Shown: one piece after another, positions 2,231 to 32,929 of the stretch
How the letters are laid out: every line of letters begins with the position of its first letter
Position numbering within the stretch: position 1 is the first letter of the stretch
Origin: Candidatus Woesebacteria bacterium
GTDB lineage: Bacteria; Patescibacteriota; Saccharimonadia; Saccharimonadales; EFPC-124
Direction of reading: 5' to 3'
Assembly (NCBI GenBank): GCA_050115675.1
Contig: JASFQB010000001.1
Location: forward strand, 162,616-203,430
DNA length: 40,815 bases
Notes under the pieces: model-generated
What the model saw: the letters and a program-made list of their open reading frames with translations, nothing else
Databases searched by the model: none
Told to the model about the DNA's origin: nothing
Position numbers and translations under genes: made by a program

Positions 2231-2800
2231 ATGACTACCACAAAGCACAACCTCCCCCTCCACAACCATCCAATCCTACAAACCCCATACATCTGGGGTC
2301 CTGTAACTTCGATGTTTGCCAACACGCCACCTGCTTTTGAGCGGACTGGTAATGTGCATGTTGTGCCGTTTATTGGCGATAATTGCATTTTAATGCACGC
2401 CATACAATCAGGTTGGTCCATGCCCGGTGGAACTCTGCTTCCAAGCGAATCTTTAGAGTCCGCTCTAAAGCGCGAACTTAAAGAAGAAATTGGCGCTAAC
2501 CTACTTAGCTATCAATTTTTTGGTGCCTGGGAGTCAAAATCGTCTTTGGCTGAGCCATACCGTCTGCATCTACCACATCCCGAATTTGCTATAGCGCTTG
2601 GCTGGGCAGATGTGCAAATTGTAGATTCTCCGTCTAGTGATAACGGCGTAGAGATGGAAACAATTACAGAGATTGTAATCTTGCCAGTAGAATCCGCCAT
2701 TGCTCAACTAAAAGCAAATGGCCGCGAGCATCTGGCGGCGGTGTATGAGTTGGCGGCGGGGTGTAGGACTTTATATTATAATGATAAGGTTCTTGCCTAA
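2231..2800 (+). CDS. NUDIX hydrolase
   Basis: Nudix box PGGTLLPSESLESALKRELKEEIGA. Start placed at ATG 2231 (MTTTKHN...) because of the -10 element just upstream. The listed ORF starts at 2201. Confidence 0.8.
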   Translation: MTTTKHNLPLHNHPILQTPYIWGPVTSMFANTPPAFERTGNVHVVPFIGDNCILMHAIQSGWSMPGGTLLPSESLESALKRELKEEIGANLLSYQFFGAWESKSSLAEPYRLHLPHPEFAIALGWADVQIVDSPSSDNGVEMETITEIVILPVESAIAQLKANGREHLAAVYELAAGCRTLYYNDKVLA

Positions 2801-2873
2801 ATTGAGTTCCTCTCGGTCTGCGCGCTAAATAAGAATGCGGCGACCATTGTGAAGCTGCGACAGAATATTATTA

Positions 2874-2879
2874 TATAAT
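2874..2879 (+). promoter_or_regulatory. -10 hexamer TATAAT, candidate leaderless promoter
   Basis: TATAAT ends 7 nt before ATG 2887. The spacer aagctca lacks an SD. Confidence 0.4.
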
Positions 2880-2886
2880 AAGCTCA

Positions 2887-3699
2887 ATGCTCACCAACGA
2901 ACACAAACACTACCCACACCTTACTTTCGACACCATCGATGGTGTAAAAGTAGTTGTCAAAGATATTACACCTGTTGAGACTGAGTTTTTTAGTGTATTC
3001 CCAAATCTTGATTCAGTTTTATACCCAATTGAAATTGCGAGTAGTAAAGCATACTATCCCTTTTGCCCCGACGGCACGATTACTGGTAAACCAAAAGCTA
3101 TCTGGGAACAGGCCGTACGCAACATTGCTCGGCTAAATAACGTTTTTGTTCCGCGTAACCTAGAATACATTCATAGCCTCGGCAAGCAGCACTATACAAC
3201 CAGATTTCAAGAAACACTCAATCTGGCGGCTCAACACAACATTAAATTACCCGAAACCGGACTAGACTTTGTGCAAACAAAAATAAGCCAGCTCAACTTT
3301 GCCGAATGCATAACACATGACGATCTTATTGCATTAAATATTCTTGTTGATAACAACACTGTTAAAATCATTGATTGGGAACACGCCAAACTTAATTTCC
3401 GCGAAAGCGACATCGGTAGACTGCTGGGTGATTTATACTTCGACGCGCCAGAACAAAACAAACATTATTACCCAACATCTTGGCATGACGATTTAGTAAT
3501 TATTTACCTAAAAGAAACCAAAAAGCTAAATCCAAGTTACAATTTGCGCACAGGCGCAGAAAACATCTTATTTGCTGAGCTTTGGAACCATTTGGGAGCT
3601 ATACGGGCAACGCTTAAAAGTGGCGACATTCACAGCGAATGGTTGCGGGCGAATGCTGAGAGTTTTGATGGCTTATGTGCGAAGATAAAGCTTTTATAA
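2887..3699 (+). CDS. Phosphotransferase family protein (APH/choline-kinase-like small-molecule kinase)
   Basis: HDDLIALNILVDNNTVKIIDWEHA contains the kinase catalytic loop HxDxxxxN and the downstream IDWE metal-binding motif typical of APH/ChoK-fold kinases. Confidence 0.7.
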   Translation: MLTNEHKHYPHLTFDTIDGVKVVVKDITPVETEFFSVFPNLDSVLYPIEIASSKAYYPFCPDGTITGKPKAIWEQAVRNIARLNNVFVPRNLEYIHSLGKQHYTTRFQETLNLAAQHNIKLPETGLDFVQTKISQLNFAECITHDDLIALNILVDNNTVKIIDWEHAKLNFRESDIGRLLGDLYFDAPEQNKHYYPTSWHDDLVIIYLKETKKLNPSYNLRTGAENILFAELWNHLGAIRATLKSGDIHSEWLRANAESFDGLCAKIKLL

Positions 3700-8089: not shown

Positions 8090-11000
8090 GTGTTTTTTGT
8101 GGTTAGACGTGCTTGTCGTGCGTGCGGTTACTTTGTTGCTATTTTGTTGGTTTCTTTGCTGCAGTCGTCAATCTGCAGTGCTTTAGTGCCATACGCTGCA
8201 TCGTCGGTTATTGGACAAGAATCATTTGATTATGGCTATAAAGGGCCGCAGTCTGTGGGTGCACCTTATGGTGTTAGTTTGGATGCCTCGTCTCATTTGC
8301 TTTTTATCGCAGATCAAAGTAAGAATCGAGTACTTGTGTTTGAGACGGATCCAATAAGCAATAAGCCAGCTAGCAAAACTGCTGTTCATGTTTTGGGTCA
8401 GCCAAATTTTGCGACCTATAGTGCAGGTAGTGGCGATAGTGGTATAAGCTGTCCACAGGGGGTATTTGCGGATAGTGCAAATAAAAAGCTTTATGTGGTT
8501 GATGGCGATAATAATAGGGTTGTAATCTTTGATTATTCGTTGGGAATTACTGATGGTATGGCTGCAAGTGATGTTTTGGGTCAGCCTGACTTTACTACGA
8601 CATCAGCTGGAACTACCAGTTCTAAGATGTATTATCCCGTTGGCATAGCTATGGATAGTGTGGAGCATAGGCTATTTATTGCTGAAGATGGCAACAATCG
8701 TGTTTTAGTGTTTAACCTTAACTCAAGTAATGTTTTGGTAGACTATACTGCTGACAATGTGCTTGGGCAAAGCAATTTCACTTCAAGCAGTGCGGCCACA
8801 ACAAGGTCTGGCTTATTTTCGCCAGCGTCTGTGGCTATGGATAGTGTGAATAATAGATTGTACATATCGGATAAGCGTAACAGTAGGGTGATAATTCATG
8901 ATATTTCCACAATATCGGACGGACAGGATGCCGTGGCGATGCTTGGACAGGTTGACTATTTTTCTAGGGTTACTGGCACTACTGCATCTAATTTTTATTA
9001 TTGTGATGGTATTGCGGTTGATATTGCAGGACATAGACTGTTCGTGTCGGAGCAAAATAATTATCGAATACTAGAATTCGACCTAGACTCGACAAACTTA
9101 CCAATTGACGGCGTGGCAGATGGTGTTATTGGTCAGACAGATTTTGTTTCAAGAAGTACAAGATATCTTGACATGGACACAGACACAATTGCTGCTGGTC
9201 AAGCTTTAATGTTTGATCCTATTAATAACTATTTGTATGCTTCAAACTACTTTTTGGATCGTGTAGGAATATTTGACGTGTCGTCAATTACGACTGGTGA
9301 GGACGTTGTGGACTTGATCGGTATGCAGCGCTATACTAGCGACTCGGTTGTGGACGTTGTGCGTCATCGTTTATTTGTTGTTGAATCGCAAGGCAATCGA
9401 GTTATGGTATATAATTTGGATTCCAATAACAACTTGATAGACACCACGCCAGACAATGTAATTGGCCAGTTGACGTTGGTTAGCCAAATTTCAGGCACGT
9501 CGGCCTCTAGGCTCAATTGCATTGATGCTTCGTGTTCAGTGGATTATGACGCCGATAGAGATATGTTATTTGTGGGTGATGGCGCCAATGGGCGTGTGTT
9601 ACTTTTTGATCTGTCAAGCGGCATAACTAATGGCATGGATGCCACGTATGTCTTGGGTAAGCCAGATTTTACGGATGCTTCATGTGGTAGTCCGACACAA
9701 CGAGATATGTGTGCTAACCACGGGGGGTTAACGTATGACTCTGTGAATAAAAGACTGTTTGTGGTGGATGGGTATAACTATCGTGTTTTGGTGTTTGATT
9801 TAACTACGCTTGAATCGTATAAGACTGCTTCGTATGTAATAGGTCAATCTGATTTTACTAGCTCAGATTATGGTACGTCTGCTACGCGGATGACATTAGA
9901 TTATGCGGGAATTAAAATCGATCCAACAACTCAATATCTATATGTTTCTGATGCCGAGAATAATCGAGTTATGGTATTTAATGCCTCGCCAGCTACCATT
10001 GCTAACGGCATGAGCGCCTCATATGTTATAGGCCAGCCAGACTTTACTAGCTCAGACTATGGTACTAGTCAGCAGTCTTTTGATTATCCCCAGGGCCTAG
10101 CGCTAGATACGTCGCGACAAGAGTTATATGTATTTGGATGGGGTAACATGCGAGTGATGCGTTTTGATCTGTCAAATCTTGCAACAAATATGAGCGCATC
10201 TGCGGTCATAGGCCAGCCGGATTTCACAACTGGCTCCACGAGAGTTGCTTCTCAGACGGCCTTCAGATCCGATAGTATAAACATGGGCTTTGATGTGGCA
10301 AACCGTCGACTGTATTTACCAGATTCCGTCAATCATCGCGTAATGGTGTTTGAGCTTGCGCACATATCAACCGCGACACTAAGTGATGCTACGGTAGGTG
10401 TTAATTATTCGGCGACCATTGAATCATCTGGAATACAGGGCACTGCTAGCTACTCGTTAGCTTCTGGGACACTGCCTACAGGACTCAGCTTTGATGCTTC
10501 TACTCATAAAATATCCGGTATGCCAACCCAGTCTGGAACATACACGTTCTCGATTAGTGTCGCTGATGATAATGGAGCGGTGGGTATAAATACGGATACT
10601 CGTTCCTACAGCTTGACAGTCGAGAATGGCGGCTCTGGGGGTGGAACCGACCCGTCTGGTGGTAGCGGCACCAGTTCAGCTAGTGCAGAAAGTGCTTCTG
10701 TCCGAGGTAGGGCATATGTGTATGCGCAGAGCGATGAAGAGCTTTTAACGCAGACGTCCTTAGACGAAATGTATCTAAGCTCTGTCACAGGTTTTTCAAG
10801 TATTTCTGGTCAGACCATAGACATTGTTATTGGGCAGGTAGTACACATGTCTTTGCAGAGTGGCCAGCAGCATACTGTAACTCTTAAATCTATAGCATCA
10901 GATCAAAGATCGGTAGTTGTTACTTTTGCCTCAACTCCACAAGATGTAACGCTTGATTGGAACGTTGCCAGGCCTGTTGATCTTGATGCTGATGGCAATC

Positions 11001-11239
11001 CTGATGTGATGGCTACTCTTGTTGATGTTGATGATGACGATACGGTTAGCTTAAACCTGAGGGATGTTAGTCTGCCAGTCGATCAATCGGCAACTGTCTT
11101 TAATGACGACGCTCAGAGCTTGAAGATGGACAATAGCGACGACAACTTTTGGGGAATTGCTGTGCTGATAATTGGAGCAATCGCAGTGCTTGTGGTCGCG
11201 ACTATTGGTGTAGTTGTTGCAAAAAAACGATATCAATAA
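8090..11239 (+). CDS. Giant surface protein: signal peptide, 12 NHL-type beta-propeller repeats, Ig-like domain, G/S linker, C-terminal module, TM tail anchor
   Basis: Twelve repeats of the form VLGQPDFT..(S/T)..G followed by N.RV.VFD(L). He_PIG/cadherin-like segment TLPTGLSFDASTHKISGMPTQSGTYTFSISVADDNG. C-terminal hydrophobic helix WGIAVLIIGAIAVLVVATIGVVVAKKRYQ. Confidence 0.8.
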   Translation: MFFVVRRACRACGYFVAILLVSLLQSSICSALVPYAASSVIGQESFDYGYKGPQSVGAPYGVSLDASSHLLFIADQSKNRVLVFETDPISNKPASKTAVHVLGQPNFATYSAGSGDSGISCPQGVFADSANKKLYVVDGDNNRVVIFDYSLGITDGMAASDVLGQPDFTTTSAGTTSSKMYYPVGIAMDSVEHRLFIAEDGNNRVLVFNLNSSNVLVDYTADNVLGQSNFTSSSAATTRSGLFSPASVAMDSVNNRLYISDKRNSRVIIHDISTISDGQDAVAMLGQVDYFSRVTGTTASNFYYCDGIAVDIAGHRLFVSEQNNYRILEFDLDSTNLPIDGVADGVIGQTDFVSRSTRYLDMDTDTIAAGQALMFDPINNYLYASNYFLDRVGIFDVSSITTGEDVVDLIGMQRYTSDSVVDVVRHRLFVVESQGNRVMVYNLDSNNNLIDTTPDNVIGQLTLVSQISGTSASRLNCIDASCSVDYDADRDMLFVGDGANGRVLLFDLSSGITNGMDATYVLGKPDFTDASCGSPTQRDMCANHGGLTYDSVNKRLFVVDGYNYRVLVFDLTTLESYKTASYVIGQSDFTSSDYGTSATRMTLDYAGIKIDPTTQYLYVSDAENNRVMVFNASPATIANGMSASYVIGQPDFTSSDYGTSQQSFDYPQGLALDTSRQELYVFGWGNMRVMRFDLSNLATNMSASAVIGQPDFTTGSTRVASQTAFRSDSINMGFDVANRRLYLPDSVNHRVMVFELAHISTATLSDATVGVNYSATIESSGIQGTASYSLASGTLPTGLSFDASTHKISGMPTQSGTYTFSISVADDNGAVGINTDTRSYSLTVENGGSGGGTDPSGGSGTSSASAESASVRGRAYVYAQSDEELLTQTSLDEMYLSSVTGFSSISGQTIDIVIGQVVHMSLQSGQQHTVTLKSIASDQRSVVVTFASTPQDVTLDWNVARPVDLDADGNPDVMATLVDVDDDDTVSLNLRDVSLPVDQSATVFNDDAQSLKMDNSDDNFWGIAVLIIGAIAVLVVATIGVVVAKKRYQ

Positions 11240-11280
11240 AACTACTCTTCAGGTGAATGTAAATACTGTTCTTGAGAGTC

Positions 11281-11289
11281 TGCTATAAT
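11281..11289 (+). promoter_or_regulatory. Extended -10 element TGCTATAAT, candidate leaderless promoter
   Basis: Ends 6 nt before ATG 11296. The spacer aacaca lacks an SD. Confidence 0.45.
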
Positions 11290-11295
11290 AACACA

Positions 11296-11979
11296 ATGAT
11301 ACACAAAAGTTTGGCTGCTTTTGACATTGACAGAACGTTAAGTAGGGAGTTCTTGGTCGTTCCAATTATGCGTGCCGAAGTGGAGTCTGGTCTTTTGGCT
11401 AGTGAGGTATTTACAGAGGTAATGAGATTACTCGCAGTGTTAAAAAGTGGCAAGCTAGGATATGAAGACACGGCACATCAAATACTAACGGTTCACGCAG
11501 AAGGGCTACAGGGTAGGACTGTCGATGAGCTATTTAGAAATTCACGTACATTTTTAAGTGATCATACTGAGCTGTTCCGTCAATTTGGTAGCGAAGTCAT
11601 GAGTTTGCTTCATTCAACGCATAAACTTTTGGCTGTGACCGCCGAGCCAGAGTATATGGCGCAGGCAGTTGTTGAAACGCTAGATATGGATGGAGCTATA
11701 TCAAGCGTATATCAAACTGAAGATGGGCAATTTACTGGTAAAGTAAATAGGTCGCTAGCGTATCGTAGAGAAAAACGTCGTCTTTTGGGTGAAATGCGAC
11801 CTGATTTTGCTTTTGGCGACAGTGTAGGTGACGCAGATATGCTTTTGCATGCGCATCATGCCTTCTGCATTAACCCAGATGTTGAGCTTGCTGCTATAGC
11901 CCAAAGGCACAATTGGAGAGTATTTAACGGCGAAGAAGACACTGAAAAAATCATTCAATCTATCTCATGCTGTTTATGA
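11296..11979 (+). CDS. HAD-superfamily hydrolase (subfamily IB / SerB-like)
   Basis: Motif I AAFDIDRTL (DxDxT) and motif IV GDSVGDADML. Confidence 0.75.
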   Translation: MIHKSLAAFDIDRTLSREFLVVPIMRAEVESGLLASEVFTEVMRLLAVLKSGKLGYEDTAHQILTVHAEGLQGRTVDELFRNSRTFLSDHTELFRQFGSEVMSLLHSTHKLLAVTAEPEYMAQAVVETLDMDGAISSVYQTEDGQFTGKVNRSLAYRREKRRLLGEMRPDFAFGDSVGDADMLLHAHHAFCINPDVELAAIAQRHNWRVFNGEEDTEKIIQSISCCL

Positions 11980-12010
11980 TATGTTTCCTTGACGACTGAT
12001 CAGCCATTTC

Positions 12011-12280
12011 ATGTTTGGAATCCATCTTGATTCACCTCAGCCCCTCCCTAATCAGTTGGGGCTACAATATAAGTGGTATGGAGGACGATCTAATCGATTT
12101 GCTGCTAGCGTCGCCAGACAGCATGACCCGATATTCAAGGCTTTGTACGAGAAGAAACGAGCTGAAGGAAAGACCTACACGGTTGCGGTTTGCATAGTGG
12201 CGCGAAAAATGCTCACCGTGATACGCGCCATTTGGCTGGGCGATGTGGACTGCCAATTGCCGGAAACAAAAACCACCTGA
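12011..12280 (+). pseudogene. IS110-family transposase remnant (C-terminal fragment of about 85 aa only)
   Basis: ARQHDPIFKALYEKKRAEGKTYTVAVCIVARKMLTVIRAIW matches the conserved C-terminal tail of IS110/IS116/IS902 transposases. The DEDD catalytic N-terminal domain is absent and the fragment abuts the HAD stop. Confidence 0.65.
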
Positions 12281-12400
12281 AGGCTCAAGCATGAGCTTGA
12301 GCGCTCGGGTGGTGCCCTCTGGACACCACGCCTCCCGAAGTTGCTCGGGAATTGCGATGCCCAGAGGGTTGATACAGGTTGGCGTCAGGTGACGCCTAGC

Positions 12401-12862
12401 TCACTCCGTCGGCGCTTGCCACACGACGCTGCCACCGAAGGTGACGAGCCGGGGGCTGACGCGCAGCACGTAGGTGCCAGCGCCGCTCGCGGCCAGGTCG
12501 TACGTCCACCCGTTCAGGTAGATCCCGACACCGCGGAAGCGGTATTCGAGATCCTTGATCACGGGGATGGGCGACGTGAGTCCGTGCGCGTCCGAGTGCT
12601 CGCCGATCTTCTTGAACGTGAACTCGATTTCCTCGTTCTTGCCGTAGGGCTTGTGGTCCCAGAAGATGTGGAGGCGGTCGGCCACGGTGGACGCGAGGAG
12701 TTCGCAGATCCGCTCGCGCATCTCCGGCGTCGAGGTGTTGCCGCTCATCTTCGGGTCGGACACGTAGACGCGCTCGGTGAAGAAGAGCCTGATGGCCTCG
12801 GCGGGGTCGGAGACGGCGTACGGGAACGCGGTGGGCTCGGTGTGGCTTGTGGAGGTGCTCAT
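12401..12862 (-). CDS. Hypothetical protein on a high-GC (foreign-looking) segment
   Basis: Hand counts of three 60-nt samples (12421-12600) give 62-70% G+C. Flanking samples at 11281-11340 and 13501-13560 give 33-47%. ATG at 12862 follows aaAGGAtggtacctgaa. No family recognised. Confidence 0.65.
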   Translation of the reverse strand: MSTSTSHTEPTAFPYAVSDPAEAIRLFFTERVYVSDPKMSGNTSTPEMRERICELLASTVADRLHIFWDHKPYGKNEEIEFTFKKIGEHSDAHGLTSPIPVIKDLEYRFRGVGIYLNGWTYDLAASGAGTYVLRVSPRLVTFGGSVVWQAPTE

Positions 12863-12941
12863 TTCAGGTACCATCCTTTCGGAATGGTCGTAGGGAATGG
12901 CATGTGCAACGGTACGCCTGTACGTACTTAGCACTTTATAC

Positions 12942-12970
12942 ATAATAGCATAAGACCTTTAATATGTCAA
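12942..12970 (-). promoter_or_regulatory. Near-consensus sigma70-type promoter, TTGACA-17 nt-TATTAT
   Basis: On the minus strand, TTGACA (12965-12970), a 17-nt spacer and TATTAT (12942-12947). This lies about 80 nt upstream of ATG 12862. Confidence 0.55.
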
Positions 12971-13452
12971 GGGTTACGTAAATTTTGCCAAATCTCCTGA
13001 CACAAACAGAATGACTTGACATGGGTATATGAGGCCTTCCAGATAAATCAAAAAAAGAACTTGATGACCGCAAAAAGCACACGTTTGTTAACGATAGCGG
13101 CAAAATCAGAGTAATGCCAGGTTGGATATAAGCATCGATAGCGCTCGATATTCAACGTTGGGCGCTATTTTAATGTTAATCCGTTTTGTGCGGTAGATCG
13201 CTAGCCGATAATATTGCATTCGTTATCAATTGCAATTGCCCGAGCACTAAGGGAGATATTGAAGAAACGGCAGATCCAATCGCGGACAGTGCAAATTCGT
13301 TTTAATAGCCCATCTGTAAGTGTCGTTATGAATAATCAACAGCATGAAATTATATAATGCAAGGATGCTTAGAGTTTTGGGCAACTATGTATTTGCAATT
13401 AAGTCAGAGTGGCTGTTATACTAAAAGTGATTAAGCTTTGAGGTTTGGGGAA

Positions 13453-16002
13453 ATGGCAAAACTTAAACGTGTTTGTCTGCTGGTTTTGGGGCTGTTTATG
13501 TCGTTGTTTTCGGCAACCGTTACAAATGTCGGAACAGCATATTCTATGAGCGGCAGTGGAACATCTGAGGATCCCTACCAAATTGCCACTTGTAGTGACC
13601 TGCAAGATATCTCTTTACACACAAGCTCTTATTATGTATTAACGGGCGACATCGATTGCTCAGAATCATCATCTTGGAACGGTGGTTTGGGTTTTGCGCC
13701 GATCAATGGTTTTAGTGGCTCGCTAAACGGGCAGGGCTATAAAATCGAAAACTTTACCATAAATCGTGCAGGCACAAGCAATATAGGCATGTTTGGGTCG
13801 AGTGCAGGCGCTGCCACTATTCAAAACCTATCTTTTATTGGTGCATCTGTGACGGGTGGTAGTTATACTGGCGTACTGATCGGCCTAAACAGTAGCGGTA
13901 CAACCATTCAAAAAGTTGCTATTAGCGGATCGGTAACGGGCACGACCGATGCTGGACTGTTGGCTGGTTCGTTAAGGACTGGCTCGTCAGTATCTGAAGT
14001 AGCGGTTACGGGTACGCTGTATGCCTCAAGCTCATACTCTGGCGGTATGGTTGGTATTTTGCGAGATAGCACAATCACCAACAGCTACGCCAACGTGACC
14101 ATGACTGGCAATACAAACTCGGTTGCAGGTTTGGCTGGTTCGGTTTACACAAACAGCGGCACCGCCGGTATTACTAACAGTTACAGTGCGGGCAGTATTG
14201 CATCAACATCCAACCAGGCAGGGCTCGTCGGCGAGACCGCAACAAGCGGCAGCACAATGACATTTACTAATAACTTTAGCGTTATGTCTTTGCAAGCAAG
14301 TGGCAGCCGAGGCGCAATGTTTGGTTTTATGGTTAGTGGTACTGGTCAAATGAATATTAGTGGACAATATTTTGACGCTACTGCTGCCAATTCATTAAAC
14401 TGCAATAACACATATTCGATAGCTGGTTGTACTGCGGTAAATACCGACGGTACAGATGGCTCTCATTTCGAAAACACCACAGCTGTTGCGCCACTTAGCA
14501 GCTGGGATTTTACAAATGTTTGGCAGCAAACCAGCGGACTGCCAACCTTGCGTAATGCCAGCTTTCCGTCAACTCCTGGCACCCCAACTGATTTAACGGT
14601 CACGGCAGGCACAAGCGAGACGGCTGAGCTTAGCTGGACAGCGCCAAGCGACGGCGGCTCAAGTATTACAGACTACTCTATTCAGTATCAAGTTGAAGGC
14701 GCAGGCAGCTGGACTAGCTGGAGTCACACGGCATCGGCAGCGACATCTGCCTCCGTAACTGGGCTTACGAATGGTACCACGTATTTGTTTCGCGTTGCTG
14801 CCGTAAATGGCATGGGCATGGGTAGCTATGCCACCTCGAGCGGTACGTTGATAGCAACAACACCGTCCGATCCTCTAGATTTTGCCGTATCTACAAGTGA
14901 CCAAACTGCCAGCTTAAGCTGGACAACACCTACGGATGACGGTGGTCAAAGCATTACGGATTACTTTATTCAGTATCAGCTTCAAGGCGCAGGCAGCTGG
15001 ACAACGTGGTCGCACTCAGCCAGTGTTAGCACCTCATCTTCAATAACCAGCCTTACTAATGGCGAATATTACGGCTTTAGAGTTGCTGCTATAAATTCTA
15101 TGGGCGCTAGCTCTTATGCTACACTTTCGTCTATATTAGTGGCAACTACGCCAAGCGCACCGCAAAGCTTAACGATTATATCTGGCAGCGATGTTGATTT
15201 GTCATGGTCTGCACCTGCTGACAATGGCGGTAGCGCGGTAACTGGATACGATTTTTATTATAGAATACACGGTGCTTCTAGCTGGACCGAAGTTGCTGAT
15301 TTAACAAGCGCTAGCTATACGCTAAGCGGACTTACGTCAGGTACATATTATGACTACAAAGTAGCGGCCAAAAACGTAAAAGGCGAAGGAGCTGCTCTTC
15401 AGCAAGACAACGTTTTGTATAGCTACAGTTCGGGTGGGTCCTCATCTTCATCGTCAACTTCTAGCTCAGGCGGCTCATCATATATAACAACAAGGGCAGT
15501 TGCCAGCTTGCTAAATAGTGACGATGATTCAACAACAGTTGCTATTGATTTGGACGATTTGGCAGATTACATAAGTGGCAAAGCTCAAGAATTAAGTCTG
15601 TCTTTGCAGCAAGTAGTCAGTTTTACAATAGAGCGCAATGGCTTAACAGAGACTCATACAGCTACAATTACAGAGATAAATAATGATTATATAATGCTAA
15701 CAGTAAGATCAACTCCATTTACACTGCGTATCGATTTAGGCGAGACGAAACCAATAATAATTGATGGGTCAGAGGTTATGAGAGTTAGCTACTTAGGTCT
15801 TAATGCTGATGGGCAAGCTGATTTAACGTTTACGCAAGTTAGTGCGCAAGATGTGTCTGATACTGAAAATGACCAAATAGTAGAGCCTTCAGTAGAAGAA
15901 AGCGATAGTAGTTTAGGTATTATGGTGGCAATTGGATCTGTTTTAGCATTAGTTATTTATATAGTTTTGATGGCGCTTAAGCGAAAAAACAAAGTTAGTT
16001 AG
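13453..16002 (+). CDS. Giant surface protein: signal peptide, GLUG-repeat region, three FN3 domains, Ser-rich linker, C-terminal module, TM tail anchor
   Basis: MAKLKRVCLLVLGLFMSLF signal and the PYQI..C.DLQDI start typical of GLUG proteins. Repeated G(L/M)(L/V)(A/G)G motifs. Three roughly 95-aa units with LSW..P.D(D)GG..IT(D/G)Y and Y.FRVAA.N. C-terminal helix LGIMVAIGSVLALVIYIVLMALKRK. Confidence 0.8.
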   Translation: MAKLKRVCLLVLGLFMSLFSATVTNVGTAYSMSGSGTSEDPYQIATCSDLQDISLHTSSYYVLTGDIDCSESSSWNGGLGFAPINGFSGSLNGQGYKIENFTINRAGTSNIGMFGSSAGAATIQNLSFIGASVTGGSYTGVLIGLNSSGTTIQKVAISGSVTGTTDAGLLAGSLRTGSSVSEVAVTGTLYASSSYSGGMVGILRDSTITNSYANVTMTGNTNSVAGLAGSVYTNSGTAGITNSYSAGSIASTSNQAGLVGETATSGSTMTFTNNFSVMSLQASGSRGAMFGFMVSGTGQMNISGQYFDATAANSLNCNNTYSIAGCTAVNTDGTDGSHFENTTAVAPLSSWDFTNVWQQTSGLPTLRNASFPSTPGTPTDLTVTAGTSETAELSWTAPSDGGSSITDYSIQYQVEGAGSWTSWSHTASAATSASVTGLTNGTTYLFRVAAVNGMGMGSYATSSGTLIATTPSDPLDFAVSTSDQTASLSWTTPTDDGGQSITDYFIQYQLQGAGSWTTWSHSASVSTSSSITSLTNGEYYGFRVAAINSMGASSYATLSSILVATTPSAPQSLTIISGSDVDLSWSAPADNGGSAVTGYDFYYRIHGASSWTEVADLTSASYTLSGLTSGTYYDYKVAAKNVKGEGAALQQDNVLYSYSSGGSSSSSSTSSSGGSSYITTRAVASLLNSDDDSTTVAIDLDDLADYISGKAQELSLSLQQVVSFTIERNGLTETHTATITEINNDYIMLTVRSTPFTLRIDLGETKPIIIDGSEVMRVSYLGLNADGQADLTFTQVSAQDVSDTENDQIVEPSVEESDSSLGIMVAIGSVLALVIYIVLMALKRKNKVS

Positions 16003-16617: not shown

Positions 16618-17028
16618 GTGAGCTGTTGTTCTATCATAGAGCGTGCAAAGCGCCCGTTGAAATTTATGGGAGTAGGCGTATTTATGACAGCAGTTAACGC
16701 AGGAGTGCTCGTGCTGCTTGTTGACGGATTTGGAATGTTGCCTGTTGCGGCAAACCTCTCTAGAGTGGCATTTACTACGCAGTTGCACTTTTTGCTTCAT
16801 CGCAAGTTTACTTGGAAAGGCAATCATGTCACTACGCTTTGGCAGCAGTGGTATCGCTATCACTTGTTAAAAGTGCTAAGTGTTTTAATGGGGCAGTTGG
16901 GCTTTATGTTGTTTTACTTGTTGGCTGGCTTGCCCTGTGTTCTTGCATTTTTGGCCAGTATTACACTAGTAGGCGTATTAAACCTTCTGCTTTTTGACAA
17001 ACTTGTATTTATGCTTGCAAAAAAGTAA
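16618..17028 (+). CDS. GtrA-like family membrane protein
   Basis: FMGVGVFMTAVNAGVLVLLVD..GMLPVAANLSRVAFTTQLHFLLHRKFTW matches the GtrA pattern (..G..n..v...l......p..A...a.......f.l.r.wtF). Four TM segments. Confidence 0.75.
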   Translation: MSCCSIIERAKRPLKFMGVGVFMTAVNAGVLVLLVDGFGMLPVAANLSRVAFTTQLHFLLHRKFTWKGNHVTTLWQQWYRYHLLKVLSVLMGQLGFMLFYLLAGLPCVLAFLASITLVGVLNLLLFDKLVFMLAKK

Positions 17029-17041
17029 TATCTGTTAGCTC

Positions 17042-17064
17042 GCCCCCGCTGATATAGCGGGGGC
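17042..17064 (+). terminator. GC-rich hairpin after the GtrA-like gene (no U-tract)
   Basis: Stem gcccccgct (17042-17050) / agcgggggc (17056-17064). It is followed by an A-rich rather than a T-rich tract. Confidence 0.4.
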
Positions 17065-17148
17065 ATTAAAATAAAAAAGGTGTTGCAATGTGCTAAAATA
17101 TATGATTTAATAGTCATGTTCATCGTACCGTCTATGAAAGGGCTAAAG

Positions 17149-17622
17149 ATGCGCAGGTGGCTGACTTGGATTGGTGCTGCGATTGCTGTAATTTTGGTGG
17201 TGGCGCTTATTGGCGTCGGTATCTGGTACAGCGAAAAGCAGCGGCAAGACCAGCTGGCTGACTTCAAGGCAGACGTGATTGCCAGTGGCTTTACATTGGC
17301 CCCGGTCAAGGACAATCCGTCCATTGAGGACGAGACCAAGACCAAGGGTACGGGCGCCAAGGCTAAGACCAAGACCAAGACTACCTTCGAGGCAATCGTT
17401 CTTGTCGATGGTTGTGCTGTCGAGCTTGAGCGTAACATGGACGAAGACCGCAACATTGGAAAGCGTGGCGGTCGCATCATCGAACTGTACGAGCTTGATG
17501 AGGGTGTGGATGCCAGGGGTGACGAGATTGAGATCGACGATGCTCCCATCGCGCCTACACCCAGCCAGGTTTCGCAGTACCTCGGGTCTGATAGGCGATT
17601 TGCCTTTTGCCTGAGGGTATGA
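17149..17622 (+). CDS. Hypothetical N-terminally anchored protein on a GC-elevated segment
   Basis: MRRWLTWIGAAIAVILVVALIGVGIWY anchor and a KTKGTGAKAKTKTKTT low-complexity stretch. The sample at 17281-17340 is 58% G+C. Shadow ORFs occur in several frames. A terminator follows directly. Confidence 0.5.
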   Translation: MRRWLTWIGAAIAVILVVALIGVGIWYSEKQRQDQLADFKADVIASGFTLAPVKDNPSIEDETKTKGTGAKAKTKTKTTFEAIVLVDGCAVELERNMDEDRNIGKRGGRIIELYELDEGVDARGDEIEIDDAPIAPTPSQVSQYLGSDRRFAFCLRV

Positions 17623-17637
17623 CGCAGTGATGACGAT

Positions 17638-17670
17638 GCGAGGCCGCAATTTGGCCTCGCATTTTCTTTT
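17638..17670 (+). terminator. Rho-independent terminator
   Basis: Stem gcgaggcc (17638-17645) / ggcctcgc (17653-17660) followed by attttctttt. Confidence 0.75.
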
Positions 17671-22521: not shown

Positions 22522-25500
22522 ATGAAGGAGCAATCAGTTAAGCCGGGTTACGCAAAGGTATGGATAAATAGCAGGCATATTATTGTTTGCGAACTTGTTG
22601 GATTGATAGACGAAAGTGTTACGGATGTTTCTATACCGCAAACAGACGCAGCCGCAAAAGAATTGACATTGCAGGGTCGTCCCGTGTTGCTGCTTATTGA
22701 TGCTAGTAGGGCTACGAGCCAAACTAGCGGTGCTAGACTGGCAACAAAAGAGCTGGCTAAGATGCGCATTCAAAAAATTGCGGTTTGTGGCAAAGAAGCT
22801 TCTTTGATGCTTGCTGCTCAATATTTAATGCATATAACGAAGGCTGCTAAGTTTGCAAAATCGTTTAGAACATTTAAAAACGCTCAGGATTGGTTGATCA
22901 ATCCTTTTGTTGGGGCATCTTTGTCTCATGATAAAAGCATTGTTGGTGCAGTGTTTATCGGTGGTGTTGGCATAGTTGCGCTTTTGGCTAGTTTTTTACT
23001 TAAGACTATTATTGTTAATCCTGTAATTGCTGTGACATTTGTTGCATTATCGGCAGCTTTGCTTGTTTTTGGACTAAGTTTTAAACGGGGTGGAGGCGCT
23101 AGAAAAAGCCTCAATGCTGTTTTGGCCTGCTGGGTTATGATACTTGCTTCTTTAGTGTGGTTAAGGGTGTTTTGGGGAATCGATTCTAGTATTGACCACT
23201 GGTTGCTTTCTGATATCGTAACGCCGTATGCATATATTACGCCAAGGTCTGCTTTTAACTTTGCGCTTGTGGGTGTTGCTTTGTTGGTGCTGGCTATGGA
23301 TCATAGGCGTAAGTGGGAGCAGTATTTATTGCAATTTGTTTTGTTTGCCATATTTATAAATTCTGTTCTTACGGTTTTTGGATCGGCGTTTGGTGTTAAT
23401 TTTGCAGAGTCTATTGGATTTATCCCCATGCCTACTGTTGAGGCTCTTTGTTTTATGGCCGCAGCAAGCTCTATGTGGTTTTTGCTTGAACCGACTAAAG
23501 GGTTTAAGAGGGCGTTTGAATCTATTGAAAAATATCAACTTGTAATCATAACCTTCTCTGTAATGCTAATTGCTACGGGTGCTTTATGGCAACTTAGTCT
23601 AGCGGATTTAAGATCAAATATTAACTCTGCAGCACAGCGAGCTTATGCAGAACAGCAAAACTCTTTTGACGAAAGACTAGCTAGTTATACTAGCGTTCTT
23701 TATGGATACAAGTCCTTGTTTGAGGCGAGTAACGAGGTGACGTCACAGGAGTTTGAAACGTATTTCGATTCTTCAGAGACCAAAAAAAACTACCCTGGCT
23801 TGAACGGGATAGCCTTTATCAAAAAAGTTTTGACAGAGGATCAACAGCAGTTTGTAGACCATATGCGTCAGCAGCCTGTATCAGTAAATCCTAATTTTGC
23901 AGATTTCAATATTAGACCGCAAAGTGATCAAAACACGCTATACGTACTGTCATATATTGAACCAAATGATGTCGAGGGAGCTGTTGGATATGACTTAAGT
24001 AGTAGCGAAACACGGCGTAATACGTTAGAGAAATCGCGTGATACGGGCGAGATTGCCACGACGGGGACAGTAAACATTAACGCTGCTTTACCTGGTGACG
24101 CTGTAGAGAAGCTTGGTTTCTTTTCGACCCTGCCAATATACTCTGGCAAGGTTGGCTCGTCTGTGTCTGTCACAGTTGAAGATAGGCAAAGTAGTCTTTT
24201 GGGTTATGTAAATGCCTCTTTTGTTTACGAGACATTATTCGCGGACGTTTTTAAAGGAGCGGTTAATTCGGATGTTAAGTTTATAGTAAAAGACCTGGCT
24301 ACAGATACTGTGTTATATGGACAAAATTCGGATATATCTTCGGATGCTATTCCCGCATATCAGGGTAACATAAACATTAATGGGCGAATTTGGCAATTGC
24401 AAATGTACTCGAATAGCAATTTTGGAGCTAGTGATTCTGAAAGGCTGGTGCCAGTAATCGTAATTGTTGGTGGAATTGTTTTGTCTTTTTTGGCAGCGTT
24501 TTTAACATTGTCTCAAATTCTTAAGCGCCAGGAGGCAATGGGGATTGCCGAAATTATGACAGAAGATTTAAGTAATGAGCGCAACAATGCTGTAGTCGCT
24601 CGAGGCAAAAATGATACTATTCTTGCAAGCATAGGCGATGCAGTTTTTGCTATAGACAACAAAAATAGAATTACCTTGTTTAACTATGCCGCAGAGGTCA
24701 TAAGTGGACATTCTTCCAAAGAGGCTGTCGGCAAAAAGTATGATCAAATTTTAAAATTTGAACACCTAGAAAAGGGAGCATTCAGGGCAACCTCGAGTTT
24801 TATTAAGAGTGCTTTGGATGGTCGAATTGCGCATATCCAAGATAACTCATATTTGGTTCGCAAGGATGGGAGCAGGGTTGTGGTGTCGGATTCTGCCGCA
24901 CCAATAAAAGACGATAGAAAAAAAATTGTGGGCGCGGTTGTCGTATTTAGGGACGCAACTCGCGAAACAGAACTAAGTAAAGCCAAAGATGAATTTGTAT
25001 CTTTAGCATCGCATCAGCTGCGCACGCCTTTATCGGCTATAAATTGGTATTCAGAGATGCTGTTGAGTGGCGATGCGGGCAAGTTAAATAAAGAGCAGAG
25101 TAATTACTTGCAAGAAATATATAGTGGCAATCAGAGAATGATAAAACTGGTCAACTCATTATTGGATGTCTCGCGTATTGATCTTGGAAAGTTTATTAAT
25201 GAGCCCGTATCTGTATCTATAGGGTCTGTTGTTAAAAGTTTAAGAATTGAGCTATCAGAAAGTATTAAAGATAAAAAAATTGATTTTATTTTTCATATAT
25301 CTAAAAAGGTGCCTCACGTTAAGGCTGATCCAAAGCTTATTAGAATAGTGATGCAAAATTTGTTTTCTAATGCTATTAAGTATTCAAGAATGGGTGGCAA
25401 GATTGAGGTTAACGTGCGGTTGGCAGGCCCGGAAGATCGCCCAAACCGTAGATGTCCAGCCAATAAAGCTTGCATAATTATGACCGTAAAAGATGAGGGT

Positions 25501-25722
25501 ATCGGCATACCTAAGATGCAACAGCCTCATATTTTCGAAAAGCTGTTTCGTGCAGACAATGCACAAACGCAAGAGGTTGAGGGCAATGGACTTGGATTAT
25601 ATCTTGTGCGAGAGATAGTAACACGCCTTGGTGGATTAGTGTGGTTTACCTCGGAAGAAAACAAAGGAACAACATTTAATGTGATTGTGCCTTTAGAAAC
25701 CGAAAGGATAAACAGCAAATAA
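22522..25722 (+). CDS. Sensor histidine kinase: STAS-like N-terminal domain, multi-TM region, CHASE, TM, PAS, HisKA, HATPase_c
   Basis: H-box FVSLASHQLRTPLSAI, N-box QNLFSNAIKY and G-boxes DEGIGI / GNGLGLYLV. PAS segment ILASIGDAVFAIDNKNRITLFN...VVVFRDATRE. CHASE-like periplasmic segment NYPGLNGIAFIKKV...LYVLSYIEPN...AVGYDLSS...R..L.KSRDTGE flanked by TM helices. Confidence 0.9.
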   Translation: MKEQSVKPGYAKVWINSRHIIVCELVGLIDESVTDVSIPQTDAAAKELTLQGRPVLLLIDASRATSQTSGARLATKELAKMRIQKIAVCGKEASLMLAAQYLMHITKAAKFAKSFRTFKNAQDWLINPFVGASLSHDKSIVGAVFIGGVGIVALLASFLLKTIIVNPVIAVTFVALSAALLVFGLSFKRGGGARKSLNAVLACWVMILASLVWLRVFWGIDSSIDHWLLSDIVTPYAYITPRSAFNFALVGVALLVLAMDHRRKWEQYLLQFVLFAIFINSVLTVFGSAFGVNFAESIGFIPMPTVEALCFMAAASSMWFLLEPTKGFKRAFESIEKYQLVIITFSVMLIATGALWQLSLADLRSNINSAAQRAYAEQQNSFDERLASYTSVLYGYKSLFEASNEVTSQEFETYFDSSETKKNYPGLNGIAFIKKVLTEDQQQFVDHMRQQPVSVNPNFADFNIRPQSDQNTLYVLSYIEPNDVEGAVGYDLSSSETRRNTLEKSRDTGEIATTGTVNINAALPGDAVEKLGFFSTLPIYSGKVGSSVSVTVEDRQSSLLGYVNASFVYETLFADVFKGAVNSDVKFIVKDLATDTVLYGQNSDISSDAIPAYQGNININGRIWQLQMYSNSNFGASDSERLVPVIVIVGGIVLSFLAAFLTLSQILKRQEAMGIAEIMTEDLSNERNNAVVARGKNDTILASIGDAVFAIDNKNRITLFNYAAEVISGHSSKEAVGKKYDQILKFEHLEKGAFRATSSFIKSALDGRIAHIQDNSYLVRKDGSRVVVSDSAAPIKDDRKKIVGAVVVFRDATRETELSKAKDEFVSLASHQLRTPLSAINWYSEMLLSGDAGKLNKEQSNYLQEIYSGNQRMIKLVNSLLDVSRIDLGKFINEPVSVSIGSVVKSLRIELSESIKDKKIDFIFHISKKVPHVKADPKLIRIVMQNLFSNAIKYSRMGGKIEVNVRLAGPEDRPNRRCPANKACIIMTVKDEGIGIPKMQQPHIFEKLFRADNAQTQEVEGNGLGLYLVREIVTRLGGLVWFTSEENKGTTFNVIVPLETERINSK

Positions 25723-25757
25723 TTATGATACAATGTTAACTAAATAGAGGCAATGTA

Positions 25758-26120
25758 ATGACAAAGAACATTCTAATAATCGAAGACGAAAAACCCTTAG
25801 CAAAGGCAATGGAGTTAAAATTAAAAAAAGCTGGACATAATGTTCAGGTGTTTTATGACGGTCAAGGTGGTCTAGATGCTGCGGCAAAGCAAAAATTTGA
25901 TGTAGTTCTTCTTGACTTGATTATGCCGGTCTTAGATGGGTTCCAGGTTTTAGAAAAACTAAACAGCATGTCGTATAAGCCGTCGATTTTTGTACTTTCT
26001 AATCTTAGTCAGATAGAAGACGAGCAAAGAGCAATCAAACTGGGGGCAAAAAAATATTTAGTCAAGTCCGACACACCACTTACGACCATTGTAGATTACG
26101 TTAATAACACTGCTACGTAA
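25758..26120 (+). CDS. Single-domain response regulator (CheY-like receiver)
   Basis: ILIIEDE...VVLLDLIMPVLDG...LSNL...KKYLVKS places the acidic pocket, phospho-acceptor Asp, and Ser and Lys at the canonical positions. No output domain. Confidence 0.9.
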   Translation: MTKNILIIEDEKPLAKAMELKLKKAGHNVQVFYDGQGGLDAAAKQKFDVVLLDLIMPVLDGFQVLEKLNSMSYKPSIFVLSNLSQIEDEQRAIKLGAKKYLVKSDTPLTTIVDYVNNTAT

Positions 26121-26138
26121 GTGCAAGTAGAGGTGGGT

Positions 26139-27815: not shown

Positions 27816-28891
27816 AAACACTAGCGCATCGCAAGCAGGTGTATCTTCCGAGCAAAGATCGTATGTATTTTACGGCAAACTTGGCGCTGCTTTTGCAGGC
27901 TGCTGTGCCATTGGGCGATATTTTAACTTCAATGCAGCAGGCAACTAAGTCTAGTAAGTTTAAAAAAATATTAGATGACATGAAGTCAGATATTGCAGAA
28001 GGTATGCCTTTATGGAAAGTCATGGAGAGGTCAAGAATCGTTTCTTGGCAAACTGTGTCGTTGGCAAAGTTGGGCGAAGAATCTGGTAATTTGGCGCAAA
28101 ATTTAAAAATTGCCGCACAGCAAGAGCAAAAACAGCATGCGCTTCGATCAAAAATTACTACAGCGATGCTGTATCCGGCTTTTGTTTTTGGTATAACAAT
28201 TGTTGTTGGAATAGGTATTGTTTGGTTTTTGTTGCCGCGGCTTGCCGACACCTTTGCGGGTTTGGGCGTAGATTTGCCACTAATTACACAGATTGTAATA
28301 GCAATTGGTAAATTTGTGGGACAAAATGGTTTTTGGCTGATACCTGCGGTTATTGGTGTAATTACGCTGTTAGTTTACGTGTTATTTATTGCAAAAGCAA
28401 CTAAGTCAATTGGCAGAAGCTTACTGTTTCATACCCCGGGCGTGTCGCGTTTAATGCAAGAAGTGGAGGTGGCTAGTTTTGGCTATTTATTTGGTACTTT
28501 GCTTGGCGCGGGCTTAAGTGTTACTCAATCTTTGCGCATGATGTACGAGGCAGAAAACACTCCCGAATACAAAAAACTGTATAGCTTTTTGTATAATTCT
28601 TTTGACGATGGCTATAATTTAAAAACTAGCCTTGATAAGTACAAAAACAGCCAAAAATTGTTACCGCCAACAGTCCAGCAAATTGCAATTGCGGGCGAAA
28701 GCTCGGGCAATTTATCTCAGTCGTTGCTTGAAATAGGCAAAATTTACGAAGAAAAATCTGACACGACAGCTCAAAACTTGCAGGCAGTTCTTGAACCAAT
28801 TTTGCTAGTAATAGTTTGGCTTGGTGTTTTGTCGGTGGCTGTAGCGGTTATTTTGCCAATTTACAGCCTGGTTGGGGGTTTGCAGGCGTGA
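27800..28891 (+). CDS. pilC: Type IV pilus platform protein PilC (GspF family)
   Basis: Two T2SSF-type halves, each with TM helices (LLLQAAVPLGDIL...; LGTLLGAGLSVTQSLRM...). GTG start overlaps pilB by 16 nt. Confidence 0.88.
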   Translation: MAGAIETLAHRKQVYLPSKDRMYFTANLALLLQAAVPLGDILTSMQQATKSSKFKKILDDMKSDIAEGMPLWKVMERSRIVSWQTVSLAKLGEESGNLAQNLKIAAQQEQKQHALRSKITTAMLYPAFVFGITIVVGIGIVWFLLPRLADTFAGLGVDLPLITQIVIAIGKFVGQNGFWLIPAVIGVITLLVYVLFIAKATKSIGRSLLFHTPGVSRLMQEVEVASFGYLFGTLLGAGLSVTQSLRMMYEAENTPEYKKLYSFLYNSFDDGYNLKTSLDKYKNSQKLLPPTVQQIAIAGESSGNLSQSLLEIGKIYEEKSDTTAQNLQAVLEPILLVIVWLGVLSVAVAVILPIYSLVGGLQA

Positions 28892-32226: not shown

Positions 32227-32236
32227 TTAAATGAAA

Positions 32237-32278
32237 AACGCCCAGAGTTATTCACATACGTAAACAACTCTGGGCGTT
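32237..32278. terminator. Long hairpin between the pilin operon and the convergent gene
   Basis: 13-bp stem aacgcccagagtt (32237-32249) / aactctgggcgtt (32266-32278). An A5 run on the plus-strand 5' side gives a U-tract for the minus-strand transcript. Confidence 0.65.
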
Positions 32279-32283
32279 GTGCG

Positions 32284-32859: not shown

Positions 32860-32900
32860 TCCATCGCTCCTTTGTGTGTAGGATATGCACTCTAGGTCTC

Positions 32901-32929
32901 ATTATAATATATTTTTTTGCATATGTCAA
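32901..32929 (-). promoter_or_regulatory. Perfect consensus sigma70-type promoter, TTGACA-17 nt-TATAAT
   Basis: On the minus strand, TTGACA (32924-32929), a 17-nt spacer and TATAAT (32901-32906). This lies about 40 nt upstream of ATG 32859. Confidence 0.6.

Follow-up and report, generated by a model that had tools for sequence, protein, structure and literature searches.

Phage morons are independent transcription units found in prophages (Cumby et al. 2012, PMC3594210). They provide the closest concept for a locus that we describe here from a 40,815-nucleotide (nt) stretch of DNA (the window) of a Candidatus Woesebacteria bacterium of the order Saccharimonadales, in which a gene for an orphan protein of 153 amino acids (aa), rich in guanine plus cytosine (GC), lies on the minus strand at about 12264-12970. 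In common with morons, the locus comprises a single accessory gene that has a promoter and a terminator of its own, differs in GC content from its neighbours and has spread horizontally between unrelated genes. The promoter is recognised from sequence evidence, the terminator consists of a hairpin (H3, below) followed by a U-run, and the GC content is clearly deviant. A (pro)phage location was not found, as there are no phage genes around the locus in the window and none of its relatives is present in IMG/VR or INPHARED; some family members are instead located in integrative or conjugative-type islands. Two features also distinguish the locus from a moron and are new, namely conserved structures in the untranslated regions (UTRs) that outlast the protein, and a GC excess that is confined to silent sites and persists over deep divergence. 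On balance we think that the segment is probably a rare, self-contained expression cassette that is exchanged horizontally among Saccharibacteria-like (Saccharimonadales) genomes and mobile elements. The cassette architecture and the horizontal exchange themselves can be taken as demonstrated.

Other compact systems share some of these properties. The insertion sequence (IS) IS200 is about 700 bp long, has an open reading frame (ORF) of about 150 aa, a hairpin near its 5' end and a stem-loop that occludes the ribosome-binding site, and is present in low copy number. The cassette resembles IS200 (IS200/IS605 family) in size, ORF length, 5' hairpin, occluded ribosome-binding site and low copy number, but its protein has no HUH/Y1 signature and its promoter is strong, whereas that of IS200 is weak. 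Integron cassettes are likewise compact single-gene units with an imperfect palindrome at the 3' end that occur in varied contexts. However, the present module has its own promoter, is single-copy in its loci without forming an array and has no integrase nearby, and we therefore rejected an integron-cassette identity; no integrase was detected among the window ORFs scanned, a scan in which attC core motifs were not specifically sought. Messenger RNAs of the hok type share with the predicted transcript a tight fold, a sequestered Shine-Dalgarno sequence, protective terminal structures and, in most close family members, complementarity between the 5' and 3' ends. In contrast to hok, the product is a soluble alpha/beta protein of 153 aa and not a membrane peptide of about 50 aa, and the complementarity is missing in four loci (L001, L004, L010 and L012). 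A promoter scan revealed no antisense promoter-like site inside the module, which does not qualify as a type I toxin-antitoxin locus.

Architecture of the module

Comparison by blastn together with a 10-locus alignment delimits a module of about 700 nt (window ~12264-12970, minus strand) that starts at the -35 hexamer and ends about 135 nt beyond the stop codon. Its ends are sharp, since sequence outside the module is unrelated between loci, and the 13 loci have no common flanks. The distant members (L010, L011 and L012-L014) possess the same layout as the aligned loci.

The first conserved position of the module belongs to the -35 hexamer TTGACA (12965-12970, minus strand), of which TTGAC is invariant in the 10-locus alignment and is also present in L010, L011 and L012. 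A 17-nt spacer separates it from an extended -10 element (12942-12950, minus strand), in which a TG at 12949-12950 and one further base precede TATTAT at 12942-12947, and the pattern TGnTAnnAT is kept in all aligned loci. In a promoter scan TTGACA-17-TATTAT (12970-12942, minus strand) agreed with the consensus at 11 of 12 positions, in addition to the TG of the extended -10. The -35 hexamer, the 17-nt spacing and the TG-extended -10 are maintained at a constant distance from the gene in 13 of 13 loci of unrelated context, and the promoter therefore travels with the gene and is not a resident one.

RNA structures in the leader and trailer

The 5' UTR contains two conserved hairpins. The first (P1, 12904-12934, minus strand) has a 4-bp outer and a 6-bp inner helix and an invariant loop, (U)ACAG(G); as it begins at the predicted transcription start (~12935), it would form a 5'-terminal hairpin. 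Compensatory changes are found in five of its six inner pairs (RNAalifold and pair counts). The second (P2, 12871-12887, minus strand), CCAUUCC-GAAA-GGAUGG, is capped by a GNRA loop and conserved in the 13 loci. The Shine-Dalgarno sequence AAAGGAUGG falls within the loop and 3' arm of this hairpin, and the ATG is 8 nt downstream. In L005 and L012 P2 reads CCGYUCC...GGACGG, both arms being altered together. Over the whole 5' UTR 92.7% of cells in the alignment are paired, compared with 27-56% when the partners are slid, and there are seven compensatory pairs.

A second copy of CCAUUCC (~12894-12900) can also pair with the GGAUGG of the ribosome-binding site (12871-12900, minus strand). The minimum free energy (MFE) fold of the single sequence pairs GGAUGG with this upstream copy, whereas the alignment consensus pairs it with the adjacent one. 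The two copies could constitute an alternative-pairing switch.

Three hairpins make up the trailer. H1 (GGCGUCA-CC-UGACGCC; 12381-12396, minus strand) follows directly after the stop codon. H2 (12315-12368, minus strand) is a long hairpin of 21-23 bp with a 2x2 internal loop, in which 95% of cells are paired over nine loci, with four compensatory pairs and many G-U pairs on the sense strand. The module ends with an intrinsic-terminator-like element (12264-12314, minus strand), comprising hairpin H3 (CACCACCC...GGGUGGUG-type, 12273-12314) and a U-run (12264-12272). Only the window, L005 and L012 possess the U-run; other members retain the hairpin without it. Taken as a whole, the 3' UTR has 94.4% of its cells paired, compared with 35-48% in controls, with nine compensatory pairs and, again, many sense-strand G-U pairs. 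The single-sequence fold of the 3' UTR has an MFE of -78.8 kcal/mol (z=-8.15), and that of the whole predicted transcript a z-score of -6.0.

Covariance models built for the two regions are strand-specific. Model R1 (3' UTR) scores 90-136 bits on the sense strand compared with 20-38 bits on the antisense strand, and model R2 (5' UTR) gives one match per locus, on the sense strand only. Because of this strand specificity and the G-U-rich pairing, the 3' element is best regarded as an RNA structure and not a single-stranded DNA one. Both models match once per family locus with no further match in 167 kb of loci, and neither UTR corresponds to a family in Rfam. We considered whether the 3' element might be a dispersed repeat or general terminator, and rejected this as there is no other copy in the window or in the 167 kb of loci.

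Two further observations concern these elements. In L008 two diverged sequences that weakly resemble the trailer (718-817 and 2930-3039, plus strand; 20 and 27 bits) lie behind two small neighbouring genes, and the trailer of the family gene itself has a low score; this organism may make wider use of the trailer design. Secondly, the P1 loop UACAGG (12917-12922, minus strand) is exactly complementary to CCUGUA (12373-12378, minus strand), which is single-stranded between H1 and H2. A kissing interaction between these sequences is compatible with most close members. Since L001, L004, L010 and L012 lack it, it is not claimed here; it may represent a lineage-limited contact of the 5' and 3' ends.

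The RNA elements are conserved better than the protein. Between the window and L012 the 3' UTRs are 79-84% identical, compared with 53% for the coding sequences (CDSs) and 29% for the proteins. Across all pairs UTR identity is weakly correlated with CDS identity (rho 0.31-0.33). The terminator hairpin of the window is near-identical to that of L012 and unlike that of L009, although the L009 protein is 78% identical to that of the window. Since the relationships of the RNA elements disagree with the CDS tree, the parts of the module must recombine.

The protein family

The CDS (12401-12862, minus strand; 462 nt), recognised from the ORF list, its composition and its homologues, encodes the 153-aa protein (MSTSTSH...WQAPTE). 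A word-indexed search of 5.8 billion clusters yielded eight relatives. When 1.84 billion representative proteins were searched in full with a HMMER profile, four more were retrieved, all distant, and otherwise family members only; a second profile search gave 11 homologous clusters in all, and L009 is a further member. Two long proteins that matched the profile (P0011 and P0012) proved to be spurious, representing a eukaryotic Sushi-repeat protein and low-complexity sequence. The family currently comprises about 13 loci with proteins of 127-168 aa, which originate from wetland, wastewater, activated sludge and soil. Among 185,579 GTDB species genomes a single one carries the gene, a metagenome-assembled genome labelled uncultured Candidatus Saccharimonadales. 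The 153-aa protein has no tblastn match in 50,697 INPHARED phage records or in 72,556 PLSDB plasmid records, and scans of metagenome contigs and viral contigs (IMG/VR) with protein patterns and DNA probes revealed no relatives.

Neither the 153-aa protein nor the distant members have a match in scans of Pfam, NCBIfam, PADLOC and PHROGs, and the defence hidden Markov models of PADLOC-DB gave no match at E<=1 against seven family members. Sequence searches of the PDB with the single protein and with the profile returned noise only (E>0.03), and there is no PDB or BFVD match and no Foldseek relative. AlphaFold2 predicts a soluble alpha/beta protein, with a predicted local distance difference test score (pLDDT) of 79 and a predicted template modelling score (pTM) of 0.78.

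Nine columns are invariant across 14 sequences. Eight of these are Ala, Gly, Pro or hydrophobic, and the ninth, E78, is the sole invariant polar residue in the family, a pattern that does not look like an enzyme active site. The ratio of non-synonymous to synonymous substitution rates (dN/dS) is 0.3-0.8 across the family. Neighbouring genes differ from locus to locus: L001 encodes a relaxase, a serine recombinase and PLD, HD, DUF3800 and RadC proteins, L002 a serine recombinase and an S24 peptidase, L006 a HigB/HigA-like pair, and L005 DUF3768 and IS110 proteins. No partner gene is conserved across the family loci. The protein is most likely a non-enzymatic binding factor acting in conflicts between mobile elements and their hosts or between cells, because it has one invariant polar residue, evolves fast, is patchily distributed and frequently neighbours mobile-element or defence-type genes.

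Two neighbourhoods deserve mention in their own right. The gene for the most distant member (P0014; L012-L014, 10671-14899) is located directly upstream of a cytochrome-oxidase operon (COX_ARM, COX1, COX3 and COX4_pro) on a 519-kb contig of 56% GC, an arrangement that recurs in at least three independent assemblies. In L002 another GC-rich (~59%) orphan ORF (2489-2912, minus strand), with different UTRs, lies 1.2 kb away from the family member; the GC content of this contig is 44%.

Base composition of the segment

In 300-nt windows GC content across the whole stretch averages 0.439 (standard deviation (sd) 0.052) and peaks at 0.663 at 12301-12600, which is 4.3 sd above the mean; every 300-nt window between 12201 and 12900 has a value of at least 0.62. 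Segment 12281-12862 is the GC maximum of the window (66% vs 43.8%). In 30-nt bins, which were used to locate its edges, GC content rises at about 12291, a few nt beyond the stop of an 89-codon ORF (12011-12280), and falls to 0.30 at 12921-12950, upstream of the ATG of the 153-aa ORF. A Logan contig assembled independently from the same wetland run (114,665 bp, depth 45) matches window 10800-14200 with zero differences, and the junctions are therefore not chimeric or an assembly artefact.

The 153-aa ORF has a GC content of 0.654, with values of 0.56, 0.47 and 0.93 at the first, second and third codon positions (GC1, GC2 and GC3) respectively. For the 38 other ORFs of the window mean GC3 is 0.41 (sd 0.07). 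Sixty per cent of its third bases are C and 33% are G, and its codon choice reverses that of the host: TTC is used in 8 of 8 cases (10% in host genes), ATC in 8 of 8 (14%) and CTC in 7 of 10 (4%). GC1 and GC2, on the other hand, are close to the host means (0.52 and 0.40), as is the amino-acid composition, with 0.23 of FYMINK residues (F, Y, M, I, N and K) compared with 0.25 in the host, and 0.27 of GARP residues (G, A, R and P) compared with 0.23. The signature of a high-GC proteome (GARP-rich, FYMINK-poor, high GC1 and GC2) is not seen. As the amino-acid composition is host-like, the GC enrichment is confined to synonymous sites.

An earlier note on this DNA, made from the sequence alone, had described the GC-rich 462-nt ORF, the position of the GC shift at both of its edges, an 89-codon fragment resembling the C-terminal tail of IS110 transposases and the near-consensus promoter, and could assign the protein to no family. 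All of these descriptions are borne out by the present results.

The imported block and the IS110 remnant

A collinear block of 941 bp (window 12101-13041) is 87% identical to L005 354-1300 (blastn). Identity varies along the block, being 0.71 in a DUF3768 remnant, 0.93 in the promoter, 0.73 in the 5' UTR, 0.93 in the CDS (0.935, 0.941 and 0.922 at codon positions 1, 2 and 3), 0.89 in the 3' UTR and 0.80 in the IS110 tail (0.90, 0.93 and 0.58 at the three positions). The DUF3768 remnant is the 3' end of a gene (12971-13041, minus strand), recognised by its collinearity with L005, where an intact DUF3768 gene (ORF 135-431; PF12599, E=1.1e-15) is located upstream of the module.

At the other end of the block is the truncated 3' end (C-terminal ~60 codons) of an IS110-family transposase gene (12101-12280, plus strand), with IS-derived DNA at about 12101-12263. 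The 89-codon ORF that contains it aligns with positions 290-338 of the 343 in the NCBIfam IS110 model NF033542 (E=1.4e-5), a match that falls far short of the family cut-off. In a tblastn comparison (60 aa), residues 31-89 of this ORF share 83% identity with the C-terminal end of a longer ORF of IS110 type in L005, which is annotated as PF02371 Transposase_20 and continues to the contig end. Unrelated sequence makes up the first 30 codons of the 89-codon ORF. The N-terminal DEDD/RuvC-like catalytic domain (Pfam DEDD_Tnp_IS110) is absent from the ORF, which has no Pfam match at E<=1, and the last ~60 residues are all that is present of the C-terminal Transposase_20 domain. IS110 relatives in L005 and in run X3 extend beyond window position ~12101-12107.

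The last ~6 codons of the IS110 frame and its TGA stop (12278-12280) are the antisense of the terminator stem and U-run of the cassette (12262-12280). L012 shares the terminator and U-run but has no IS, and by reference to this locus the end of the IS falls just past the U-run. The tail is present in the window and in L005 and absent from the other 11 family loci. This neighbour was therefore acquired once, in the lineage of the window and L005, and is not the vehicle of the family; it is a dead remnant and not a general partner of the cassette. IS110-family elements encode bridge-RNA-guided recombinases (Durrant et al. 2024, PMC11208160). Compared with a full element, the stub matches through its C-terminal ~60 residues. 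The N-terminal catalytic domain and the greater part of the C-terminal one are missing from the window, and so, probably, is any bridge RNA; Rfam gave no match in 11900-13200 or in the whole window, which is expected for a truncated element. The IS end abuts the foot of a conserved hairpin, a position in keeping with the targeting of structured intergenic repeats that is reported for some IS110 elements (bioRxiv 10.64898/2026.03.19.712850).

Silent sites across hosts

All relatives are rich in GC3 (0.70-0.93), irrespective of the host genome. Taking the mean over neighbouring host genes as the measure of each locus, GC3 of host and family genes, respectively, is 0.41 and 0.93 in the window, 0.40 and 0.84 in L002, 0.42 and 0.81 in L003, 0.46 and 0.86 in L001, 0.56 and 0.88 in L007, 0.57 and 0.92 in L009, 0.67 and 0.76 in L004, 0.73 and 0.88 in L012, 0.74 and 0.74 in L008, and 0.79 and 0.80 in L011. 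In L010 the family gene has a GC3 of 0.70 on a contig of 45% GC, and in the four low-GC hosts other than that of the window, L010 included, the values span 0.70-0.86. There is no positive correlation between host and family GC3 (rho = -0.45, not significant).

The window and L005 allow a comparison of silent sites within one collinear block. Third positions differ at 12 of 153 codons of the CDS compared with 25 of 59 in the adjacent IS110 tail, a fivefold contrast (p=2.5e-8). In the IS110 tail divergence at positions 1 and 2 is 7-10% only, the pattern of ordinary purifying selection on a protein, whereas the cassette CDS has changed equally at all codon positions. On the window branch there are nine GC-to-AT changes at positions 1 and 2 and three at position 3; of the eight changes at position 3, four replace C by G or G by C. 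The third-position contrast, dN/dS, the branch substitutions and the structure of the CDS, taken together, favour the view that silent sites are held at G or C by selection or biased conversion.

Origin of the cassette

The cassette is a unit with a near-consensus sigma-70 promoter of the extended -10 type, the P1/P2 leader, the orphan alpha/beta protein and a three-hairpin trailer of ~135 nt, and is moron-like, although its setting is chromosomal or that of an island. Hairpins at the 5' terminus and in the 3' UTR, together with the GC-rich body, would give rise to a long-lived, heavily folded mRNA, the translation of which may be gated at the hairpin of the ribosome-binding site. High GC would be a property of the cassette, with synonymous sites held by a fixation bias, either through selection on the mRNA or DNA or through biased gene conversion, and would not represent the fading signature of an actinobacterial donor. 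The product may be a fast-evolving binding protein employed in conflict between mobile elements and hosts or between cells. In the window, the cassette would have arrived inside a larger DUF3768-cassette-IS110 element, both flanks of which have since been lost by deletion as far as 12101 and 13041, with the cassette itself remaining intact.

Several points weigh against this account. The transcription start, the 3' end, mRNA stability and translational gating are predictions from sequence, and the functional suggestion for the protein draws on context and evolutionary rate only. With only about 13 related members, the covariation and composition statistics are not independent samples, and a taxonomic label is present for one family locus only. 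No empty site without the module was found in related runs, which yielded short fragments only and no joint. Structure in the CDS beyond that expected from codon composition is modest (mean z ~-1.3), being negative in 11 of 12 members. The polarised substitutions on the window branch are in the expected direction but not significant (p=0.11-0.14), and recent replacement of the CDS by recombination could instead account for the small number of third-position differences between the window and L005. Finally, in the higher-GC hosts L011 and L008, and in part in L012 and L004, the gene has the same or nearly the same GC3 as its neighbours, and repeated recent export from a higher-GC reservoir could explain a large part of the anomaly with no need for selection.

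The last of these is the most serious alternative, although we consider it rather unlikely. It would have the cassette native to Saccharibacteria-like lineages of higher GC (56-60%) with an ordinary GC3 of 0.75-0.9, from which it is repeatedly and recently exported to low-GC relatives, its composition being unameliorated and its silent sites under no selection. The gene is indeed compositionally at home in L011 (host 0.79, gene 0.80) and L008 (0.74 for both), and in L012, where the host average is 0.73 and the gene is at 0.88, neighbours reach up to 0.88; the mid-GC amino-acid composition suits such donors, and the mosaicism of the module implies frequent transfer and recombination. However, five members occur in hosts of <=47% GC with mutual synonymous divergence (dS) of 0.4-1.4, so that about five independent recent exports would be required, and the known members occur in low-GC hosts as often as in high-GC ones. 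Moreover, the top GC3 values (0.92-0.93) lie above the neighbouring genes of any high-GC host sampled, and simple unameliorated transfer doesn't predict a silent divergence fivefold lower than that of a neighbouring gene within one collinear block.

Biased gene conversion acting by itself appears improbable as a complete explanation. Frequent recombination between the conserved UTR flanks, with biased repair of heteroduplexes, would drive silent sites to G or C and homogenise the CDS with no benefit at the level of RNA or protein. Such a process accords with the mosaic history of UTRs and CDS, the low divergence of the CDS relative to its flanks and the limitation of GC enrichment to freely variable sites. 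It is less easily reconciled with the promoter spacer and the unpaired UTR segments, which belong to the same recombining unit and are AT-rich in every member, or with the 5' UTR of the window and L005, which is 73% identical between two segments of 93% and does not resemble a simple conversion tract. The C-to-G and G-to-C swaps, which make up half of the recent third-position changes, are in keeping with conversion.

It is very unlikely that, as the earlier note had proposed, the gene is a recent acquisition from a donor of high GC content, for instance an actinobacterial host, through an IS110 element that has since decayed, and is expressed from a resident AT-rich promoter. The idea has some attraction, since a GC3 of 0.93 and codons ending in C or G resemble a genome of ~70% GC and an IS110 remnant adjoins the gene in a block that is clearly imported. 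The part of the proposal that stands is horizontal acquisition, the segment being compositionally foreign to this genome and collinear with L005 throughout the block. The donor and the resident promoter are not supported. No homologue outside the family was detected in phages or plasmids, in the 1.84 billion representatives, in the 5.8 billion clusters or in the 185,579 species genomes; a 70% GC proteome would not have the host-like GC1, GC2 and amino-acid composition seen here; and in all 13 loci the promoter belongs to the conserved module. Since few bacteria have been sampled as well as Actinobacteria, the complete absence of homologues from them is a strong argument against an actinobacterial donor. 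Delivery by an IS is not supported either: the IS110 piece is truncated and decayed, as had been noted, but is present in 2 of 13 loci, has its insertion point beyond the terminator and is not the carrier of the gene. Within the limits of the data, the best matches are confined to the lineage itself, an outcome that the earlier note had named as counting against its reading, but the gene is unlike its hosts in GC content.

The least credible alternative, that the module is a miniature autonomous IS200-like insertion sequence (~700 bp with a ~150-aa protein, end hairpins and a sequestered ribosome-binding site) encoding a new transposase, would account for the parallels in size and layout, the sharp ends in many contexts and the structured ends on one strand, but was rejected as the protein has no HUH motif or catalytic Tyr and no similarity to the Y1_Tnp fold, and there is no evidence of transposition.

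Returning to a horizontally exchanged expression cassette, a more far-reaching version may tentatively be considered, though we would not count it as probable. Here the module would exemplify an undescribed kind of mobile single-gene cassette in Patescibacteria, with a conserved, exchangeable RNA chassis (5'-terminal stem-loop, gated ribosome-binding site and three-hairpin trailer) and silent sites kept almost entirely at G or C by selection in any host, so as to provide an unusually stable or nuclease-resistant message for a fast-evolving conflict protein of new fold.

Other features of the window

The locus is flanked by ORFs of 1049 aa (8090-11239) and 854 aa (13438-16002), with a gene for a HAD-IB hydrolase (11272-11979) also located between them. 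An antisense ORF of 196 aa (12341-12931, plus strand) overlaps the cassette. We rejected it as a gene since the codon-aligned antisense frame contains stops in 4 of 12 family members, and it is therefore a shadow of the high GC3 on the opposite strand.

A second GC-rich orphan ORF (32284-32859; 191 aa, GC 57%, GC3 0.66), with no Pfam match, occurs at window 32234-32927 (minus strand). It is likewise self-contained, with a TTGACA-17-TATAAT promoter, an AAGGAG ribosome-binding site and a clean intrinsic terminator, and its UTRs are unrelated to those of the cassette at 12.4 kb. GC-rich moron-like units may be recurrent in this genome. The ORF with the third-highest GC3 in the window (0.61; 17080-17622, plus strand) overlaps long ORFs on the opposite strand (16914-17549 and 17143-17649). 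Elsewhere (22522-28891), a CHASE-PAS histidine kinase gene (22522-25722) is followed by type IV pilus genes encoding a PilB-like T2SSE ATPase (26121-27815) and a T2SSF platform protein (27800-28891), and a gene for an LVIVD-repeat beta-propeller protein (29300-30709) lies near the pilus genes. This set fits a pilus-dependent, surface-attached lifestyle.

Implications

Although the significance of the cassette is limited by the number of known copies, which is about 13, the locus illustrates that a GC island beside an IS stub in the genome of an epibiont is not evidence of gene capture from an actinobacterial host. It also provides a compact natural system for the long-standing question of whether selection or biased conversion, in addition to mutation, shapes synonymous GC in bacteria, as one gene keeps a GC3 of 0.7-0.93 in hosts of 43%-59% GC with a neutral yardstick adjacent to it. 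If the selection reading is true, this would be a natural case of selection on synonymous GC that is cleanly separable from mutational bias. Saccharibacteria are now transformable, and the strong, portable set of promoter and UTRs may be useful in this respect. The accessory genome of the Saccharibacteria, which is very poorly annotated, gains two new conserved RNA structures and an orphan protein fold.

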